From positions 1 through 60,771 of the forward strand of contig CAZADR010000004.1 of the NCBI GenBank assembly GCA_964484005.1: a stretch of 60,771 bases of DNA, in the 5' to 3' direction. Source of the stretch: an uncultured Candidatus Saccharibacteria bacterium. Its GTDB lineage: Bacteria > Patescibacteriota > Minisyncoccia > Phycocordibacterales > UBA9973. Position numbers and translations under genes: made by a program. Below, piece by piece: positions 4,385 to 13,312 of this stretch; position 1 is the stretch's first letter; the number at the start of each line of letters is the position of its first letter. Under the pieces are notes generated by a model that saw only the letters and a program-made list of their open reading frames with translations, made no database searches and had not been told where the DNA came from.

Positions 4385-5011
4385 ATGAAAAAGCTTTTCA
4401 TGCTGTTTTGCTTCATCGTCTTGTCGTTCGCTACCGTGGTGAACGCCCAACCGAACATTTTCCCGTCGAGAGAGCAGTGCGAAGCTGCTTTTCTGTCGGG
4501 CACCTACAGTGTGTATGAGCCGAAATTCTTCGGCCTCAAGGAAACCAATCCAGTCGACGGTAAAACAAAAATTACCAATCCTCTGGAATCAAGTGCGTGT
4601 GTGGGAATGCTCACCACCGCCGGAAAGAAGTGGGTGGTTCAAACCGAAGGCACTATCTTACGTTGGAATGTCAACGCAGATGGATCTCTCGGAACCCCCT
4701 ACTCCCGCGACGACTGTGGAAATCCGATTTTTGGAATTTCCTACCCAACAGCACCTCAAGTAGTCGAACATCGTACTCCTGCACCACAACCTCAACCGGT
4801 GGTTGAAATCAATGTAGTGCAGCAAAACGAAAATAGTAGCCCAATCAAAGGGTTGGACTACTACGAGAAACAGTTCAGCGGCCCCACCCCTACTCCTGCC
4901 ACTGAGCAACCCCGCCGCTCTTTCGTGCGAAGGCATTGGAAGGGTATCGCAGGATTGGCAGCTCTGGGAGGAGTTGTCGCATACGGTATCGAGAACTGTT
5001 GGTTTTATTAA
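4385..5011 (+). CDS. Secreted/anchored hypothetical protein (signal peptide, C-terminal hydrophobic anchor), GC-rich
   Basis: 208 aa. N-terminus MKKLFMLFCFIVLSFATVVNAQ, strong SD (AAGGAGAGG), C-terminus GIAGLAALGGVVAYGI. GC content is far above that of the flanks. Confidence 0.7.
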   Translation: MKKLFMLFCFIVLSFATVVNAQPNIFPSREQCEAAFLSGTYSVYEPKFFGLKETNPVDGKTKITNPLESSACVGMLTTAGKKWVVQTEGTILRWNVNADGSLGTPYSRDDCGNPIFGISYPTAPQVVEHRTPAPQPQPVVEINVVQQNENSSPIKGLDYYEKQFSGPTPTPATEQPRRSFVRRHWKGIAGLAALGGVVAYGIENCWFY

Positions 5012-6008: not shown

Positions 6009-6153
6009 ATTTTTTATATAATATTATCAAACTCAATGTAATAATTTAAAAACCTACACGTCATGGTGTAAGAGTTTGTATACTTGACATGTAAAACCAT
6101 GTATGATACAATATAAGATATTACTTATTAACAGAATTTTAATACAAAACCAT

Positions 6154-8352
6154 ATGAAGAAAATCAATCAATATCTACAGGGCACAGTCGCATTAACCAT
6201 ACTAGCTATCGGAGCTATATTTTTTGGACTTTCTTTCAAAAATGTAGAGGCCGCTGATTTAGTTTCGGGTAGCATAGGCATTACCCCAAACACGATCAAT
6301 GCAGGGGAATCCGCTACTATACAGTGGAGTTCTTATAACGCTACCGTAATTTCAATTACGCCTGGCGTAGGGAGTGTTGCTTCATCTGGAAGTATTACAG
6401 TTCGTCCGACCCAAACCACTACCTACACCTTAAATATTAGCAACAGCACCAGTGCTACTACTGCGACTGCCACTGTTAATGTAATCCAAACACAGCAAGA
6501 TTTCTGTCCCAATATTGCTGGTACTCAGACTTCTGTTCCATCAGGAATGCACATAGATAATAATGGAAATTGTGTGACTAATTATACTCCGCCACCTGCT
6601 ACTGATGTCTGCCCCAATATCGCTGGTACCCAAACTTATGTTCCATCAGGAATGCACATAGACAATAATGGAAATTGTGTGACTGACTATGTTCCTACTG
6701 ATTTCTGTCCCAATATCGCTGGTACTCAAACTTCTGTTCCATCAGGAATGCACATAGATAATAATGGAAATTGTGTGACTAATTATACTCCGCCACCTGC
6801 TACTGATGTCTGCCCCAATATCGCTGGTACCCAAACTTATGTTCCATCAGGAATGCATATCGATAATAATGGAAACTGTGTTGTTGATACAATCAATAAC
6901 AATATAAGCGTAAATCTAAATGCAGATGATACAAGCATTGATGACGGTGATGAAACTGAGCTCTATTGGACCTCAAACAATGCTGTCTATTGTAATAGAA
7001 CTGGCGGTAGAAATGGCTGGTCTCTAAACAATGTAGGCATTTCCGGAGATTTTGATACAGGAAATTTGTCCTCAGATACAACTTATAGTATTACTTGCTA
7101 CAACAATGTCGGAAATTCTGCTATTGATTCTGTAACAGTTAGAGTAGAGGACGACAACAATAACGACAATGAACCAGATGTAACAACCAGAAACGCAACC
7201 AATGTCACCACATCTAGTGCTACCTTGAATGGAGAAGTAGATGGTAATGGTACCTCTGTTCGTGCTTGGTTTGAATACGGAACAAGTACAAGTCTTGGAT
7301 ATAGAACTTCAGAAAATTCTTACGGTTCTGGTTCAACTGACTACAGTAGAAGTATCTCAGGATTATCTCCAAACACCACATACTACTTCCGCGCAATGGC
7401 AGAAAATTCTGATGGCACAGCTCGTGGAAGTATCCTTACTTTCAGAACAGGACAAGGCTACAACCCACCAGTAAACAATCAACCCACAGTAGTAATCTTT
7501 GCGGATAGTACAAATATATCCTACAACGGAGCTACTACTCTAAGATGGAGTAGCTACAACGCAAGCTCTTGCTTTGCTTCCGGTGGATCTGTCGGCTGGG
7601 CTGGAGTAAAAAGTATTGGACCTGCAAGTTTCTACACTGGTTCATTAACTTCAAACAGAACTTACACCATTACTTGTACAAATAGTTTTGGTTCAGCTAC
7701 TGATTATGTGACTGTAAATGTTCGTGGACGAGTAGTAAATACTCCTGTCACTCCGACTTCTTATGTGATAATTAATTCTTCTGTGGACCGCAATCAACCT
7801 ATCGTTCCAACAATAGACAACACCAGACCTCACCCAGGAGATGAAATCAACTACACTGTAACTTACCAAAACATAGGTAATGCTTCTATCACCAATCTTA
7901 CTTTGAGATTAGACCTTCCTTATGAAGTAGATTATATGTTCTCTACTCCTAATAATCCTATTAGAAATGGAAATACTTTAATCTTCAACCTAGGAACACT
8001 CAGAGCTAATGCACAAGGTACTGTAAATGTAAGAGTACGAGTTCGAGAAAACATAGCCCCCGGAGCGGTCTTAAACTTCCCAGCAATCTTGACCTACACA
8101 GATCCTTTTGGAAATACTCAATCTGTATCTGCCAACGTTTCTGCACAAGTCTGGAGTGGTGACGGTGAAATAAAAAATGAAAGTATCTTCCTTGGAGCAA
8201 ATGTCTTTGGAGCAGATTTTCTTCCAGATAATTTATTCGGATGGTTACTATTACTCATCCTTATATTAATACTTATCTTATTGGCTAGATATCTCTACTC
8301 TGGAGTACAGCCTTTCAAGAAGAGAACAACTACAACCACAGTTCAACACTAA
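6154..8352 (+). CDS. Large cell-surface protein (signal anchor, Cys-repeat modules, FN3-like and DUF11-like regions, C-terminal TM anchor)
   Basis: Start placed at MKKINQYLQGTVALTILAIGAIFF. Contains four CPNIAGTQT[SY]VPSGMHIDNNGNCV repeats, the segments ...LNGEVDGNGTSVRAWFEYGTS...YYFRA... and PHPGDEINYTVTYQNIGNASITNL, and ends in LLLLILILILILLARYLY. Confidence 0.8.
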   Translation: MKKINQYLQGTVALTILAIGAIFFGLSFKNVEAADLVSGSIGITPNTINAGESATIQWSSYNATVISITPGVGSVASSGSITVRPTQTTTYTLNISNSTSATTATATVNVIQTQQDFCPNIAGTQTSVPSGMHIDNNGNCVTNYTPPPATDVCPNIAGTQTYVPSGMHIDNNGNCVTDYVPTDFCPNIAGTQTSVPSGMHIDNNGNCVTNYTPPPATDVCPNIAGTQTYVPSGMHIDNNGNCVVDTINNNISVNLNADDTSIDDGDETELYWTSNNAVYCNRTGGRNGWSLNNVGISGDFDTGNLSSDTTYSITCYNNVGNSAIDSVTVRVEDDNNNDNEPDVTTRNATNVTTSSATLNGEVDGNGTSVRAWFEYGTSTSLGYRTSENSYGSGSTDYSRSISGLSPNTTYYFRAMAENSDGTARGSILTFRTGQGYNPPVNNQPTVVIFADSTNISYNGATTLRWSSYNASSCFASGGSVGWAGVKSIGPASFYTGSLTSNRTYTITCTNSFGSATDYVTVNVRGRVVNTPVTPTSYVIINSSVDRNQPIVPTIDNTRPHPGDEINYTVTYQNIGNASITNLTLRLDLPYEVDYMFSTPNNPIRNGNTLIFNLGTLRANAQGTVNVRVRVRENIAPGAVLNFPAILTYTDPFGNTQSVSANVSAQVWSGDGEIKNESIFLGANVFGADFLPDNLFGWLLLLILILILILLARYLYSGVQPFKKRTTTTTVQH
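6499..6900 (+). repeat. In-frame tandem repeat: two near-identical 201-bp units, each made of two ~100-bp subunits
   Basis: GATTTCTGTCCCAATAT... recurs at 6499 and 6700; GATGTCTGCCCCAATATCGC... recurs at 6604 and 6805. Confidence 0.9.
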
Positions 8353-8434: not shown

Positions 8435-9130
8435 ATGGCCATGGATAAAGATACAGAAAAAGAAACAGAATCATACCCAATGCGAATTAATAAATACCTC
8501 GCATTAAAACAAATCTCCACTAGGAGGGGGGCTGACGAACTGGTAGAAAATAAAAAAGTATTTATCAATGGTAAGCTTGCCGTACTAGGCAGCAAAGTAA
8601 ATGAAACAGATAAAGTAGAAATAAGAGGTTCTAAGCAAAAAGAATATGTTTACTATGCCTACAACAAGCCTATTGGCACCGAGACCAGCTCTCCAAGAGA
8701 AGACCTATTCCCTCTCGGCAGGCTAGATAAGAATTCTCACGGCCTACTCATCCTCACCAATGACGGACGCATTACCGACCGACTTTTAAATCCAAAATAT
8801 TTTCACGAAAAAGAATATGTTGTTCGTACTAAAGAAAAACTTCGCTCTAGTTTTAAACAAAAAATGGAAGCTGGAGTAAATATTGAAGGTTATCAAACTC
8901 AAAAATGCAAAGTAAAAATATTGGGTCCCAACACTTTCAAGGTAATTTTAACTGAAGGAAAGAAACACCAAATTCGCCGAATGTGTTCCACACTATTTCA
9001 AGAAGTAGCAGATTTGAAACGCGAAAGAATCATGAACATAAAACTCGGCACCCTAAAAGAAAAAGGACTCAGGGAAATAAAAGGAGAAGAACTTTCTACT
9101 TTTCTAGATCAAGTACTTCATCAATCCTAA
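8435..9130 (+). CDS. Pseudouridine synthase, RsuA/RluF family (S4 domain + catalytic domain)
   Basis: MRINKYLALKQISTRRGADELVENKKVFINGK is an S4 domain; GRLDKNSHGLLILTNDG contains the catalytic Asp motif. The start is uncertain (8435 or 8480; the ORF opens at 8414). Confidence 0.85.
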   Translation: MAMDKDTEKETESYPMRINKYLALKQISTRRGADELVENKKVFINGKLAVLGSKVNETDKVEIRGSKQKEYVYYAYNKPIGTETSSPREDLFPLGRLDKNSHGLLILTNDGRITDRLLNPKYFHEKEYVVRTKEKLRSSFKQKMEAGVNIEGYQTQKCKVKILGPNTFKVILTEGKKHQIRRMCSTLFQEVADLKRERIMNIKLGTLKEKGLREIKGEELSTFLDQVLHQS

Positions 9131-9136
9131 TTTGTT
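9096..9136. repeat. 41-bp direct repeat, copy A (flanks the DGR cassette)
   Basis: CTACTTTTCTAGATCAAGTACTTCATCAATCCTAATTTGTT compared with copy B at 11773..11813 (CTATTTTTCTAAATCCAATACTTCATCAATCCTAATTTGTT). There are 4 mismatches and the last 25 nt are identical. Confidence 0.9.
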
Positions 9137-10097
9137 GTCTTAATTTATATTCATCTCCATGCGAGAGCATCCCCAAATAAGATTGAACGGATTCCTCTTT
9201 TGGATTCTGTGCAAGATTCCTCAACATTCTGTTTTTAGTAGTGGTTCTCAACACTCTATGGTGGGGAAAATTAACCCAACCTAGGAAGTCTACACCTGAG
9301 GCAAGAGTTTTGATATAAACTTTATCTGGGTGCATTTCTAATTTTAATTTCTCTTTTAAATAACCTCTCATATATGATAGGCTAAACAGGGGTTCATCTT
9401 TGTTTTTAGAAAATAAAACAAAATCATCCGCGTAGCGTATGTAATATTTAACTTTCAATTCCCTTTTCACATATTGATCAAATTCATTCATGTAGATATT
9501 AACTAGCAATTGAGAAGTCAGGTTGCCTAAAGGTAATCCAGCTAGGCCTTGCCTAGCTGAGAAACTATCTATCAACTGCCCCAGAAGCCAGAGAACATCT
9601 TTGTCTTGAATGTGTTTCGCCAGAATTTTTTTTAATATTTTATGGTCAATATTGGCAAAAAACTTTCTGATATCGCACTTTAGAACATAGCAGGTTTTAG
9701 TACTGTTTTTTGAAACGATTCTTGAGAAATCTCGGAATCTATTAACGGCTTTGTGGGTGCCTTTGTTTACCCTGCAAGAATATGAATCATGGATGAATTT
9801 GGTGTCGAAAAATAAATATAGTTCTTGATAAATTAAGTGGTGAAGCAGCCTGTCTCTTACTGTAGCTTTATGTATTTCCCTGGGCTTTGGGTCAGAAATA
9901 TTAAACGCGTGATAACCACCATGTTTGTAAGTCTTATTTTTTAAATCACTATAAAGTTCTGATATATTGTCCATCAATCTAGCCTGAAATAAAATTACAT
10001 CTTTTTTGTTTTTCTTATCACGCAAAAATTCCTGCCAAGCTTTGAGCAGTTTTTCTATGGTTATGATATTATCGTATGTATGAATAAATTGTTTCAT
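9096..10097 (-). CDS. DGR-type reverse transcriptase
   Basis: 333 aa. Contains ...NISDPKPREIHKATVRDRLLHHLIY..., GLPLGNLTSQLLVNIYMNEFD (DGR RT signature) and YIRYADDFVLF (YxDD). The last 13 codons lie in direct repeat A and equal the C-terminus of the ABC-F gene. Confidence 0.9.
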   Translation of the reverse strand: MKQFIHTYDNIITIEKLLKAWQEFLRDKKNKKDVILFQARLMDNISELYSDLKNKTYKHGGYHAFNISDPKPREIHKATVRDRLLHHLIYQELYLFFDTKFIHDSYSCRVNKGTHKAVNRFRDFSRIVSKNSTKTCYVLKCDIRKFFANIDHKILKKILAKHIQDKDVLWLLGQLIDSFSARQGLAGLPLGNLTSQLLVNIYMNEFDQYVKRELKVKYYIRYADDFVLFSKNKDEPLFSLSYMRGYLKEKLKLEMHPDKVYIKTLASGVDFLGWVNFPHHRVLRTTTKNRMLRNLAQNPKEESVQSYLGMLSHGDEYKLRQQIRIDEVLDLEK

Positions 10098-10497
10098 GTT
10101 TCTATACCCCCCCCCCGCAGCGCTCTCAGTTCCTTCGGCGCTTCTAAAAACAAAAATTGCCTATTCTTTCTGGTTTAAAATATATAACGACTTCCCCAAA
10201 ACTCATCGCTATACCCTAGGCGGCAAAATTGAAGATTATTTTCTTGGTCTTTTGGAAAATATTTTCATATCCCTCTATCTTCCGCCGGAAACTAAAGCAT
10301 CTCGTCTTGTTGTCGCAATTTCCAAACTGGACGGCATAAAATTTTTCTTGCAAATAGCTTGGGAAAATAAATGTATCAAAGATGAGAAATATTCTTTACT
10401 TTCAGAACACTTACAAGAAATTGGCAGAATGCTCGGTGGCTGGAAGAGAGGCTTGGAAAAGAAAACTCCTCCAACTAAGGAGGAGAAACGGGTTTAG
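10096..10497 (+). CDS. avd: Avd-like four-helix-bundle accessory protein (DGR accessory variability determinant)
   Basis: 133 aa. KIAYSFWFKIYNDFPKTHRYTLGGKIEDYFLGLLENIF... resembles the four-helix-bundle / 23S rRNA IVS protein family. Its start overlaps the RT start within CATG, on the opposite strand. Confidence 0.7.
   Translation: MFLYPPPAALSVPSALLKTKIAYSFWFKIYNDFPKTHRYTLGGKIEDYFLGLLENIFISLYLPPETKASRLVVAISKLDGIKFFLQIAWENKCIKDEKYSLLSEHLQEIGRMLGGWKRGLEKKTPPTKEEKRV
10107..10116. repeat. C10/G10 homopolymer tract
   Basis: Ten consecutive C on the plus strand. They fall in codons 4-7 of avd (Y-P-P-P) and, as G10, lie 10-19 nt upstream of the RT ATG on the minus strand. Confidence 0.95.
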
Positions 10498-10500
10498 TTT

Positions 10501-10613
10501 CGGAGAGAAGATACGATGCCTGTTGTCACTGTTCCAGATGTTGTCGTTCGAAACATGGTTCAGGTTGGCGTTGAGCTTACCGTCATCGTTCACATTCACA
10601 TTGGCAACGAAGA
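10501..10613 (-). repeat. DGR template repeat (TR)
   Basis: Gap-free alignment with 11000..11112. All 21 differences are at minus-strand adenines of this copy. It translates to the Asn-rich sequence NVNVNDDGKLNANLNHVSNDNIWNSDN. Confidence 0.9.
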
Positions 10614-10901
10614 ATTGTAAGATGAGCCATCTATTTCACTGCCGACTTGAGCATATTTTAATATAAAAAGTCGTGCTGTATATTATTTTGGGGTATAGAA
10701 CCCCACCAGCTCACCCCACCAACTTTTATGTTTTTTGTTTTAAAAAAGAATTTACTCTTCTCTAAGTTTTAGCCGAGAGAACTCTCAAATTAGTTTTTAA
10801 GTAATCACGGCTTGAAGTGTTGACCGCAAGCATTTCCCGATTACAAGTTCAGTATATTAAAAAAATTCAAAAGGGTCAAAGTAAAAAAGTTTCAAAGTGG
10901 C

Positions 10902-10938
10902 AAAAAAAATCCCGAGTTACGATGATTTGTAACTCGGG
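10902..10938 (-). terminator. Rho-independent terminator of the DGR target gene
   Basis: On the minus strand: CCCGAGTTAC-aaatcatc-GTAACTCGGG followed by T8. Confidence 0.75.
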
Positions 10939-10966
10939 AGAGCGATTCGTCGCTCGACGTTTGGCG

Positions 10967-11656
10967 TTATGCCGATTCGGAGGAAACAAGTGCCTGTTGC
11001 GGAGAGAAGATACGATGCCTGAGGCCACTGCTCCAGATGTAGCCGCCCGAAACATGGCACAGGCCGGCGCGGAGCCCACCGTCATCGTCCACACCCACAC
11101 GGGCAACGAAGACATTTGAGAGGTCTTCGGTGACTACTTCATCGCCCCTGGTGAGGACGAAGAAGTTAGCGTAGCCGTTTCTCTGAAGCTTGTCTGAATC
11201 ATCCAGACAGAGACTCAGGAATTGACTACCGAGCAGACGAAACTTCTCGAGTTCCTCTGCGGTGTTGCCGAGGAACTCGGTGAACTGCCCGTTACGCACG
11301 AGCTCGTCAGCAGCAACTTCGGTCTCGGGAGCAACTCCCGAGAATACGATGCCAAAGCTTTCGAACTCTGGAGCGAAGTAGCCTCGGAATACTTTGCGCG
11401 CCGTTGAGTAGGTGTCCTTACCACTCGTCGCACCGAGCTTGAGGGTGAAGAGATGGCGGAGGTAGGTTTTGACCTCCTTCGTCGTTTCCACCACTTTCTT
11501 CCTCCACTCCCTCACAAACTTCGCGAGGTCGTTGAAGAATTCGATGTCATCCTCCGGACGACCTAGACGGTTGGCGATGTCGAGCAGAAGCCCGAGCATC
11601 TTTACAGGAACTCCGACGAGTGCACGAGTGAGCGGGCCGAGCATATCCTTAGACAT
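10967..11656 (-). CDS. DGR variable (target) protein, unknown fold, no signal peptide, GC-rich
   Basis: 229 aa. The VR occupies the C-terminal ~38 codons (...FVARVGVDDDGGLRAGLCHVSGGYIWSSGLRHRIF...). Confidence 0.85.
   Translation of the reverse strand: MSKDMLGPLTRALVGVPVKMLGLLLDIANRLGRPEDDIEFFNDLAKFVREWRKKVVETTKEVKTYLRHLFTLKLGATSGKDTYSTARKVFRGYFAPEFESFGIVFSGVAPETEVAADELVRNGQFTEFLGNTAEELEKFRLLGSQFLSLCLDDSDKLQRNGYANFFVLTRGDEVVTEDLSNVFVARVGVDDDGGLRAGLCHVSGGYIWSSGLRHRIFSPQQALVSSESA
11000..11112 (-). repeat. DGR variable repeat (VR)
   Basis: Counterpart of the TR at an offset of 499 nt. 11000..11021 is identical to TR 10501..10522 (IMH-like end). Confidence 0.9.
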
Positions 11657-11772
11657 GATCTCTTTCTCCTTTCAGGAGCTGTTCTATATGGCAACGAAAT
11701 TGTCACCATAGCTTTAATTCAAAGGACTTAATACTCTTATATTATACACCCAATGGATGAAAAAGTCAAGGG

Positions 11773-11813
11773 CTATTTTTCTAAATCCAATACTTCATCA
11801 ATCCTAATTTGTT
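11773..11813. repeat. 41-bp direct repeat, copy B
   Basis: Lies at the 3' end of the ABC-F gene. See copy A at 9096..9136. Confidence 0.9.
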
Positions 11814-13269
11814 TTACGAATTCAGGAACATGGGAAACCAAAATCATGGCACCCTTATATTCGTCTAACGCTTTAGCTATTATAGGTAAATGACGGAAAT
11901 TTATATGATTTGTTGGCTCATCTAATATTAAGAGTCCAGGTTTTTGAAGAACTAATCGAGCAAAAGCAACCAGGCCCTTTTGCCCCTCAGATAGGTCTCC
12001 TATTTTAGTACGAATAAATTCCTCAGTAATTAAAAATCCAGCAGCAATGGAACGCATCCTTTCTTCATCTAGTCTTTCCCCGCCTTCCTGCATGGCAGTC
12101 GCCAATGATTGATAAACAGTATCTTCAAAGTTTAAAGTAGAAAAATCTTGCCTATAATATCCAATACGAATTCCCTCTTTTACTTTTTCTCCTTCTGCGT
12201 GCCCACTAGCGAGTCTTTCTAGTAGAGTAGTTTTACCTATACCATTTGGTCCCTGCAGGAGTAAGTGTTGATTTTTATTTAAAGAAATGTGCGCTTTTCG
12301 TTTTATTATTTTCCCATCTTTCATGGTGGTAAAAGAAGAAATTTTTAAAATCTCCCCTATTAAGTCTGGTTGAGAAAGAATGATAAATGGCCTAATGGCC
12401 TTGTCTTCTTTTCTGACATCCACGATTTCCTCTTCGAGTTCTTCTGCTTTTTCACGCATTCTTTTGGCCACCAAGCGTAGTCGCCCCCCTTTATAAGCAA
12501 AAACATTGGCTTGCTCTTTTTTAGCCTGAATTTCTTTTTGAAGCTGAGCATTTTTCATATTTTCTTTTTCTACCCGAGCGACAATGTCTTTTACCACATT
12601 AAAATAGTTACCTACATATTGCTCTATCTTTTTTGTATACACATCTAAATAAAGCACACCTTCAGTAAAGGCATTTAAAAATTCTGCATCGTGGGATATG
12701 ACCAAAACTGTTTTTTTATAACTAACCAAGAATTTTGTCAGGTGGGCAATCCCAGCTTTATCTAGATTATTTGTCGGTTCATCAAGTAAAAGCAAATCTG
12801 GATCTTGGATGAGGGCTCCCGCCAAAAGAAGTCGCGCTTGTTGCCCTCCAGAAAAATCTTTAATAAGCTTGTCGTGAATTTTAGTGTGTCCTCTTAAATT
12901 TACTACTTCTAACACATCATCAATTTTAGGATCAATATCGTAAACCTTAACCTTAAAACATTTTTCAAAAAATTCTCGAACAGTCAAATCTAGCTCCTCA
13001 CGAGGGATTACTTGTCTCGCCGAAGCGATACTTACACCTTTAACTACATTTATGATTCCTGATTCAGGGGTATTTAAACCAGAAATCAAACCAAAGATAG
13101 TACTCTTTCCTGCCCCATTCTGACCCATTAAGGTGAGCTTTACTCCACGCCTTATGGTAAAGCTAACTTCTTCTAAAATAGGCTTGTTTACACCCCATTC
13201 AAAAGAAACATTGTCGAATCTGACTATGGTTTCCTGTGTTTTTGGATTATCTTTAGTTTCCTTAGACAT
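11773..13269 (-). CDS. ABC-F family ATPase (two ABC cassettes, no TM domain)
   Basis: Two Walker A sites (GQNGAGKST, GPNGIGKTT), two LSGGQ-like signatures (FSGGQQ, LSEGQK) and two Walker B sites (LLLLDEPTN, LLILDEPTN), joined by a charged linker. The ATG at 13269 is preferred over the TTG at 13272. Confidence 0.9.
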   Translation of the reverse strand: MSKETKDNPKTQETIVRFDNVSFEWGVNKPILEEVSFTIRRGVKLTLMGQNGAGKSTIFGLISGLNTPESGIINVVKGVSIASARQVIPREELDLTVREFFEKCFKVKVYDIDPKIDDVLEVVNLRGHTKIHDKLIKDFSGGQQARLLLAGALIQDPDLLLLDEPTNNLDKAGIAHLTKFLVSYKKTVLVISHDAEFLNAFTEGVLYLDVYTKKIEQYVGNYFNVVKDIVARVEKENMKNAQLQKEIQAKKEQANVFAYKGGRLRLVAKRMREKAEELEEEIVDVRKEDKAIRPFIILSQPDLIGEILKISSFTTMKDGKIIKRKAHISLNKNQHLLLQGPNGIGKTTLLERLASGHAEGEKVKEGIRIGYYRQDFSTLNFEDTVYQSLATAMQEGGERLDEERMRSIAAGFLITEEFIRTKIGDLSEGQKGLVAFARLVLQKPGLLILDEPTNHINFRHLPIIAKALDEYKGAMILVSHVPEFVKQIRIDEVLDLEK

Positions 13270-13312
13270 CAATGTAGATTAGCTTATTTAGGCTTAAATA
13301 GAAAGGGCTTGA

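Follow-up and report, generated by a model that had tools for sequence, protein, structure and literature searches.

Several described systems stand close to the locus reported here. In the diversity-generating retroelement (DGR) of Bordetella phage BPP-1 (mtd-avd-TR-brt; structures 4dwl and 8ub7), every part runs in the same direction and avd stands ahead of the template repeat (TR), according to the part of the survey by Wu, Gingery, Abebe et al. (Nucleic Acids Res 2018, PMC5758913) on which we draw. The same part of that survey describes an architecture named B3, written 'TR-(avd)-RT' with parentheses for the reverse strand and RT for the reverse transcriptase, which makes up 90% of its set of DGRs from the candidate phyla radiation (CPR); it further states that some DGRs require at least two transcription units and that co-transcription of TR and RT is not needed. 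Outside the DGRs, the contingency loci of Neisseria, Haemophilus and Campylobacter (PMC3546556, PMC5084427) carry a long poly-G/C homopolymer just past the start codon, whose length is polymorphic in otherwise identical sequences and sets the reading frame of surface or restriction-modification genes. We describe here a DGR cassette on contig CAZADR010000004.1 of an uncultured Candidatus Saccharibacteria bacterium (assembly GCA_964484005.1); the whole stretch analyzed, of 60,771 nucleotides (nt) or 60.8 kb, is called the window below. Our tentative proposal, to which we give a little less than an even chance, is that a large Patescibacterial DGR family carries a repeat at the 5' end of avd, mostly poly-C and in a few loci a dinucleotide repeat, that gates Avd, perhaps with the help of +1 slippage; mutagenic retrohoming would then be phase-variable, and TR would be a free-standing RNA whose terminator is dual-coded with the Avd tail.

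The cassette is a complete DGR on the minus strand, with one gene, avd, inverted. Its RT gene (9096-10097, minus strand; 333 amino acids, aa) matches Pfam RVT_1 (E 1.9e-22), and LGNLTSQ and YADD motifs are visible in the sequence. The best match among PDB sequences is 8ub7_A (E 2.8e-36), the RT chain of a DGR ribonucleoprotein whose chains B-E are Avd; it stands about 20 orders of magnitude ahead of RTs from retrons or group II introns, the best of the latter at 5e-17, and places the enzyme in the same clade as that of BPP-1. TR occupies 10498-10613 (minus) and its homology with the variable repeat (VR; 10997-11112, minus) begins immediately past the avd stop. Read in the minus sense over 116 nt, TR and VR are identical at 81 of 81 non-adenine positions. 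The 21 mismatches within 10501-10613 each fall on a TR adenine (A>G 15, A>T 3, A>C 3), and a further A>C at 10500 was taken directly from the sequence. The last 22 nt or so of both repeats (CAGGCATCGTATCTTCTCTCCG) are identical. The 3' end of the target gene (10967-11656, minus; 229 aa) contains VR, which ends 28 nt short of the stop. BPP-1 likewise has adenine-specific changes from TR to VR and a VR at its target's 3' end. A check for the initiation of mutagenic homing (IMH) site and its inverted repeat returned an 11-bp-stem hairpin about 58 nt past VR, which resembles the terminator of the target gene. No second VR was found across the window. The target product has no match in Pfam; homologues in relatives share 28-63% identity with it.

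The initial annotation of this DNA had given coordinates and strands for RT, avd, TR and target that all proved correct, including the placement of an inverted avd (10096-10497, plus) between TR and RT; chance falls far short of accounting for the observation. It had also held this layout to be non-canonical, which did not survive a comparison of synteny among homologous cassettes: Avd (plus) and RT (minus) stand back to back, transcribed divergently, in 100 of the 100 fetched loci that hold both genes, and the arrangement is the published B3. In order and strands, target/VR, TR, reverse-strand avd and RT are the same here as in the CPR B3 DGRs of PMC5758913, insofar as that source is used here, and the host lineage matches as well, the relatives belonging to Nomurabacteria, Paceibacterota and other Patescibacteria. 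The cassette is almost certainly an ordinary Patescibacteria (CPR) DGR of B3 type, with the order target/VR, TR, avd on the reverse strand, RT. The layout alone, being one more example of an architecture catalogued in 2017-2018, matters little by itself; the way in which DGRs of this class are expressed could matter. The words 'antisense' and 'start codon' are absent from PMC5758913, and the part of it on which we draw describes no terminator in the avd tail, no TR promoter and no poly-C tract. We also observed cassettes of the Patescibacteria type on contigs labeled 'uncultured Gammaproteobacteria', 'Bdellovibrionales', 'Nanoarchaeia', 'Pyrinomonadaceae' or 'Aestuariivirga' (L023, L053, L066, L080, L087-L090 and others, by our locus numbers); these labels are probably errors of binning or labeling and not signs of transfer.

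The inverted gene opens at ATG 10096-10098 and closes at TAG 10495-10497. That its 133-aa product is Avd-like had been claimed from the sequence, with structure prediction as the suggested check, and both lines now agree. The product matches Pfam bAvd (PF22296) with 50.4 bits, above the gathering cut-off of 40 (E 3.5e-13). An AlphaFold2 model built on 23 homologues (predicted local distance difference test, pLDDT, 87) forms a four-helix bundle, with helices at residues 14-31, 35-59, 64-90 and 96-123 and disordered tails at the N terminus (1-12) and C terminus (124-133). In a Foldseek comparison the model superposes on the Bordetella phage Avd 4dwl with a template modeling (TM) score of 0.88-0.90 and a root-mean-square deviation of 1.4 A, and it fits the Avd chains of 8ub7 as well (TM 0.84-0.90 across 4dwl and 8ub7). 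A sequence profile of the protein gave nothing significant against PDB sequences, and Avd was recovered there by fold comparison only. Homologues at E<=1e-3 number 237, all on Patescibacteria-type contigs; those with names are four-helix-bundle proteins of Nomurabacteria, Parcubacteria or Patescibacteria. Relatives in species-representative genomes number 498. On this model, the product is a protein of the Avd fold, the same as in BPP-1.

Between the start codon and the Avd fold, avd carries a run of ten C (C10; 10107-10116, plus) that encodes YPPP at codons 4-7. It is the only C or G run of at least 8 in the window, where CCC makes up 13% of proline codons. The tract precedes helix 1 and falls within the disordered residues of the model, hence outside the fold. 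Most relatives keep the same nucleotide module between the RT start and the Avd fold, namely a C run, 1-3 nt, a hairpin and LLKAK codons. The distance from tract to Avd domain is fixed at 19-22 nt, and that from RT start to tract ranges over 1-47 nt (7-47 nt when one locus of uncertain RT start is set aside). A scan for the tract pattern retrieved 51 genome and 87 metagenome stretches, which reduce to 115 distinct contexts. Tract lengths in these are 7 (9 contexts), 8 (12), 9 (45), 10 (31), 11 (10), 12 (3), 13 (3), 15 (1) and 17 (1). Six pairs of loci with both flanks 100% identical differ by a single C only, the flanks compared being 400 nt per side in five pairs and 172 and 400 nt in the sixth; flank-identical sets carry 8, 11 and 12 C, or 9, 10, 11 and 12 C.

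At the level of sequence, tract length bears on the reading frame. Among 97 poly-C loci with a mapped RT start, an ATG open to the tract and in the Avd frame is present in 35 and absent in 62; the available ATGs lie in the +1 frame in 52 loci, in the 0 frame in 35 and in the +2 frame in 24. In some loci (L011, L018, L019, L054 and L069) a stop just before the tract leaves no possible in-frame start. All 16 of 16 repeat-free relatives have a single in-frame avd ATG, and two remaining loci, with (GA)8 or (CA)n where poly-C sits elsewhere, are out of frame. These dinucleotide repeats at the tract position are (GA)8 and (CA)~17, in L021 (about 4415-4432) and L077. In the window, with C10, ATG 10096 is in frame, and an alternative upstream ATG (10080-10082, plus; antisense to His6 of RT) stands in frame +1 with respect to the Avd domain; relatives whose tract is shorter by one C, such as L216, have the upstream ATG in frame instead. 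L216 was considered as a near-identical sibling of the window and rejected: only about 30 nt of flank are identical, and it falls outside the 40 best nucleotide matches, themselves at 72-77%.

Directly past the tract stands a hairpin, AGCGC...GCGCT (10119-10142, plus), identified by folding and covariation; in the window its loop is enlarged by an insertion of 9 nt. Of the alignment cells of 46 relatives, 74.8% are paired, against at most 45% when the pairing is slid, and compensatory changes (AU/GC and CG/UA pairs) give AGCGC/GCGCT, GAGCAC/GUGCUC, GAGUAC/GUACUC and AGUGC/GCACU. The loop is often cUUCGg on the plus strand. We also inspected the tract as a possible promoter spacer for RT or avd and discarded the idea, as no consistent -35 or -10 element was seen on either side.

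The simplest reading of these data suggests a simple-sequence-repeat contingency switch on avd. C10 would be a hypermutable repeat whose length sets the frame between the start codon or codons and the Avd bundle, and Avd, hence mutagenic retrohoming, would be toggled stochastically between on and off or high and low states, with +1 slippage at the C run possibly helping. In the window, C10 would put ATG 10096 in frame (the on state), C9 would put ATG 10080 in frame, and C11 neither. We hold it an even question whether Avd is under repeat control of this kind; towards the explanation as a whole, a B3 DGR with a separate TR RNA and a repeat-gated Avd, we lean somewhat. The parallel with contingency loci is close at the level of sequence: at avd, too, a long homopolymer just past the start is polymorphic in length between otherwise identical sequences and sets the frame, and alternative ATGs lie in different frames. 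What differs is that the gated gene would be a DGR accessory factor in an uncultured, ultra-small bacterium, that avd frames are biased to +1 and that switching at avd is a prediction from sequences. A literature search on DGRs with avd frameshifting, phase variation, and homopolymeric or simple-sequence repeats returned nothing relevant, and we did not find the tract described in the papers covered. If the proposal is true, most cells carry avd out of frame and only a sub-population diversifies the target protein. A stochastic switch would then be placed over a targeted hypermutation system, and DGR mutagenesis would gain its first known built-in on/off control. VR diversity in metagenomes would be predicted to track tract frame, which could be tested on existing reads.

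The second part of the proposal concerns TR. A few bases past the 3' end of TR, a terminator scan matched 10485..10466, followed by UUUUCUUUUC; the whole intrinsic-terminator-like element, CTCCTCC-TTAGTT-GGAGGAG plus UUUUCUUUUC, spans 10456-10485 (minus) and its hairpin folds at -13.9 kcal/mol in the window. It runs antisense to the final 12 or so avd codons, the hairpin and U-tract corresponding to the antisense of the Avd C-terminal ...EKKTP... and a variable tail that is disordered in the model. The TR-sense sequence of 108 distinct relatives follows the pattern ...CCGAAAC-N5-8-GTTTCTCC(stem)-loop-(stem)GGAG-TTTT(N)TTT, and 107 of them have a hairpin below -6 kcal/mol at this site (mean -13.7). 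In a 62-sequence alignment, 94.9% of the cells of the 8-bp stem are paired, against 82.4% in shuffled alignments (0 of 500 reach the observed value) and 39-67% in slid controls, and 58 cells show double changes, against 13.9 in shuffles. The stem contains 42 U-G and 3 G-U pairs, an asymmetry consistent with a terminator folded on the TR-sense and not on the avd-sense RNA. For the window, RNAfold also predicts a small second hairpin, GAAAC...GUUUC, that would lie between TR and the terminator; we rejected it, as relatives with GCAAC or GAAAU lack a compensating change.

About 240 nt upstream of TR, a promoter scan found a sigma-70-like candidate for the TR RNA, TTGACC-17-TATACT (10851-10879, minus). 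In 37 of 61 loci, the best promoter-like site (at least 9/12) is 720-780 nt away from the RT start, and at this conserved position relatives often have TTGAAT-17-TATAAT with TG before it. Transcription from this near-consensus promoter, ending at the hairpin and U-tract directly past TR and encoded antisense to the disordered Avd tail, would yield an RNA of about 380 nt, convergent with avd. Because the promoter position is conserved and the terminator covaries, we consider it likely that TR is such a separate, terminated, free-standing RNA. The geometry is such that its 3' end and that of avd overlap in sense and antisense. In this, as in its inverted avd between TR and RT, the locus differs from BPP-1: here TR has a predicted promoter and terminator to itself, and a terminator hairpin follows TR on its 3' side where BPP-1 has a long spacer leading into RT. 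Nucleotide similarity among cassettes spans about 9130 to about 10905, covering RT, avd, TR and a leader of about 290 nt, and ends at the terminator of the target gene. This non-coding leader (10614-10905, minus), between the TR promoter and TR, lies within blastn matches of 72-77% identity and contains GTTGGTGGGGTGAGCTGGTGGGGTTCTATACCCC; it appears about as conserved as the genes and may form a structured domain at the 5' end of the TR RNA. A search of both strands of 8900-11900 against Rfam at E<=1 returned no family. The TR RNA of about 380 nt, defined by a promoter and a terminator of its own, would be a concrete RNA to reconstitute for CPR DGRs, and the dual-coded terminator and the avd repeat are the points worth following.

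The promoter of avd itself had been predicted to fall within the RT coding sequence, and the comparison supports this. An extended -10-like element, TGATATTAT (10064-10072, plus), lies antisense to RT codons 9-12 and ends 7 nt before ATG 10080. The corresponding TGnTAnnnT ends some 26-35 nt inside RT in 56 of 70 loci. A divergent avd transcript would thus arise from an extended -10 promoter embedded in the opening codons of RT. The target gene has a promoter-like TTGACT-17-TATAAT upstream (11/12; 11741-11769, minus) and, 28 nt past its stop, a putative terminator made of an 11-bp hairpin and T8 (10902-10939, minus; scan match to the stem and T8 at 10939..10910). Judged across about 100 relatives, the predicted division of the cassette into separate transcription units is well supported. 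For RT, a consensus scan between the TR terminator and the RT start revealed no conserved promoter; a promoter inside avd was rejected, as it would correspond to a weak minority peak only (180-210 nt, 8-12 of 69 loci). Since no conserved RT promoter was found inside avd, RT is probably made by read-through of the terminator, from transcripts that run antisense through avd.

These transcription data bear on the regulatory model put forward in the initial annotation, in which a single minus-strand transcript covers TR and RT, antisense through avd, and the resulting pairing, together with a CATG shared by the start codons of RT and avd, could regulate Avd against RT. The gene geometry is as that model describes. 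It also draws support from the lack of a conserved sigma-70-like RT promoter past the TR terminator, and RT mRNA may indeed come from terminator read-through. Against it stands the covarying hairpin and U-tract between TR and RT in 107 of 108 loci, and co-transcription of TR and RT is not required according to the portion of Wu et al. (PMC5758913) used here. A co-transcript may thus still feed RT, but it is not obligatory, since TR has a predicted promoter and terminator of its own. The shared tetranucleotide fares similarly. It is present at 10095-10098, the RT ATG being the complement of 10095-10097 and the avd ATG 10096-10098, but as a conserved design it fails: in 130 distinct related loci the tetranucleotide at the RT start is CATA in 76, CATT in 23, CATG in 16 and CATC in 7, and the ATG of CATG is in the Avd frame in only 9 of the 16. 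Relatives free of any repeat have their avd ATG 7-12 nt past the RT start. Because CATG is rare in related loci and starts are set apart in this way, we read it as incidental, a chance outcome, at this locus, of how very short the divergent intergenic region is, and no conserved device. The regulatory model as a whole is doubtful, and we retain separate units for TR and avd.

The tract can be explained in other ways than by a switch. It may be a programmed recoding site, where translation starts at an upstream ATG in the 0 frame and some ribosomes, stalled on poly-proline and aided by the hairpin that follows 1-3 nt later, slip +1 on CCC-C, or else RNA polymerase slips on the run; either would provide a set low level of full-length Avd. 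CCC-C is prone to a +1 shift, and prfB-type frameshifting and CCC-C slippage by tRNA-Pro are known programmed +1 systems. A shift-prone run, a functional domain in the +1 ORF and a nearby structure are all matched at avd. Further arguments for recoding come from the hairpin, with its compensatory changes and a cUUCGg loop on the mRNA strand, and from the extended -10 element, which at 7 nt before ATG 10080 could yield a leaderless mRNA starting in the +1 frame. The frames point the same way: +1 is the commonest, and in the first genome set 14 of 16 distant loci were in the +1 frame despite different pre-tract, tract and post-tract lengths. In the larger sample this bias becomes modest (52, 35 and 24 loci in the +1, 0 and +2 frames), frames vary between flank-identical sequences, and 35 of 97 loci, including the window, are plainly in frame. 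Unlike known +1 frameshift sites, avd lacks a conserved 0-frame slow or stop codon at the place of the shift, and its frame offset is not fixed across relatives, while (GA)8 and (CA)n at the tract position in two loci fit DNA slippage and not slippage of tRNA-Pro. Moreover, the hairpin lies in coding sequence, where covariation is confounded with codon constraints. We therefore rejected a strict programmed +1 frameshift and regard recoding in the wider sense as unlikely. It is quite unlikely that the tract has no switching role, merely encoding an N-terminal PPP or acting on the other strand as a G-rich, Shine-Dalgarno-like element for RT, with length differences due to assembly errors and Avd starting at AUA/AUU or at a downstream GTG/TTG. 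The G run does end 9 nt before the RT ATG in the window; ATA occupies exactly the site of the window's ATG in 76 of 130 loci, usually in the Avd frame, and in some distant loci GTG or TTG directly precedes helix 1. Yet a general Shine-Dalgarno role had to be rejected because the distance from the tract to the RT start varies (1-47 nt) and that to Avd is constant (19-22 nt). Pure CCC codons are retained in genomes that use CCC as a minor proline codon, flank-identical sequences differ by up to 4 C (8, 11 and 12 C), and several loci have no in-frame start of any kind.

Several observations nevertheless weigh against the contingency switch and separate TR RNA that we favor. Differences of 1 nt in the tract could in part be consensus errors at a homopolymer or reflect mixed populations. 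The window's own avd begins with an ordinary ATG in frame, and the hairpin past its tract is weak (-7 kcal/mol, z -1.2). The excess of +1 over +2 frames (52 against 24) is not predicted by a neutral on/off repeat; it fits programmed +1 recoding or a start at an in-frame AUA, which stands in most close relatives where the window has ATG. The promoters and the terminator are predictions in AT-rich DNA, where promoter-like matches number 12 against 5.8 expected, and the missing RT promoter is a negative result obtained by consensus scanning only. Finally, the related loci are phylogenetically linked and their counts are not independent.

The target gene stands out by its composition. Its GC content is 55% and its GC at third codon positions (GC3) 0.65, against a GC3 of 0.28-0.38 in RT, avd and the neighboring genes and a GC content of 36% for the window. 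The family shows the same: the target region exceeds RT by more than 8 points of GC in 41 of 53 relatives, with a mean difference of +13.6. Adenine mutagenesis alone does not explain this excess, since A and T are both depleted in the target gene. Judged by base composition, the target gene is foreign.

The 2,677-bp DGR cassette is bracketed by an imperfect direct repeat of about 42 nt with a 23-nt perfect core, its left copy at 9096-9138 and its right copy, at an offset of 2677, at 11773-11815. The repeat is the 3' end of an ABC-F ATPase gene (11773-13272, minus), and for this reason RT ends in a tail identical to that of ABC-F: the last 12 residues of RT, QIRIDEVLDLEK, are those of the ABC-F C terminus, and RT homologues lack this tail. 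The bracketing repeat looks like the scar of an insertion or duplication at the junction of the ABC-F and pseudouridine-synthase genes. In L009 and L176, the ABC-F homologue lies on the other side of the cassette. Also adjoining the DGR neighborhood is a 749-aa ORF (6103-8352, plus), with a hydrophobic segment at its N terminus and a hydrophobic anchor at its C terminus, whose product is probably a surface protein; it contains four near-identical CPNIAGTQT(S/Y)VPSGMHIDNNGNCV repeats.

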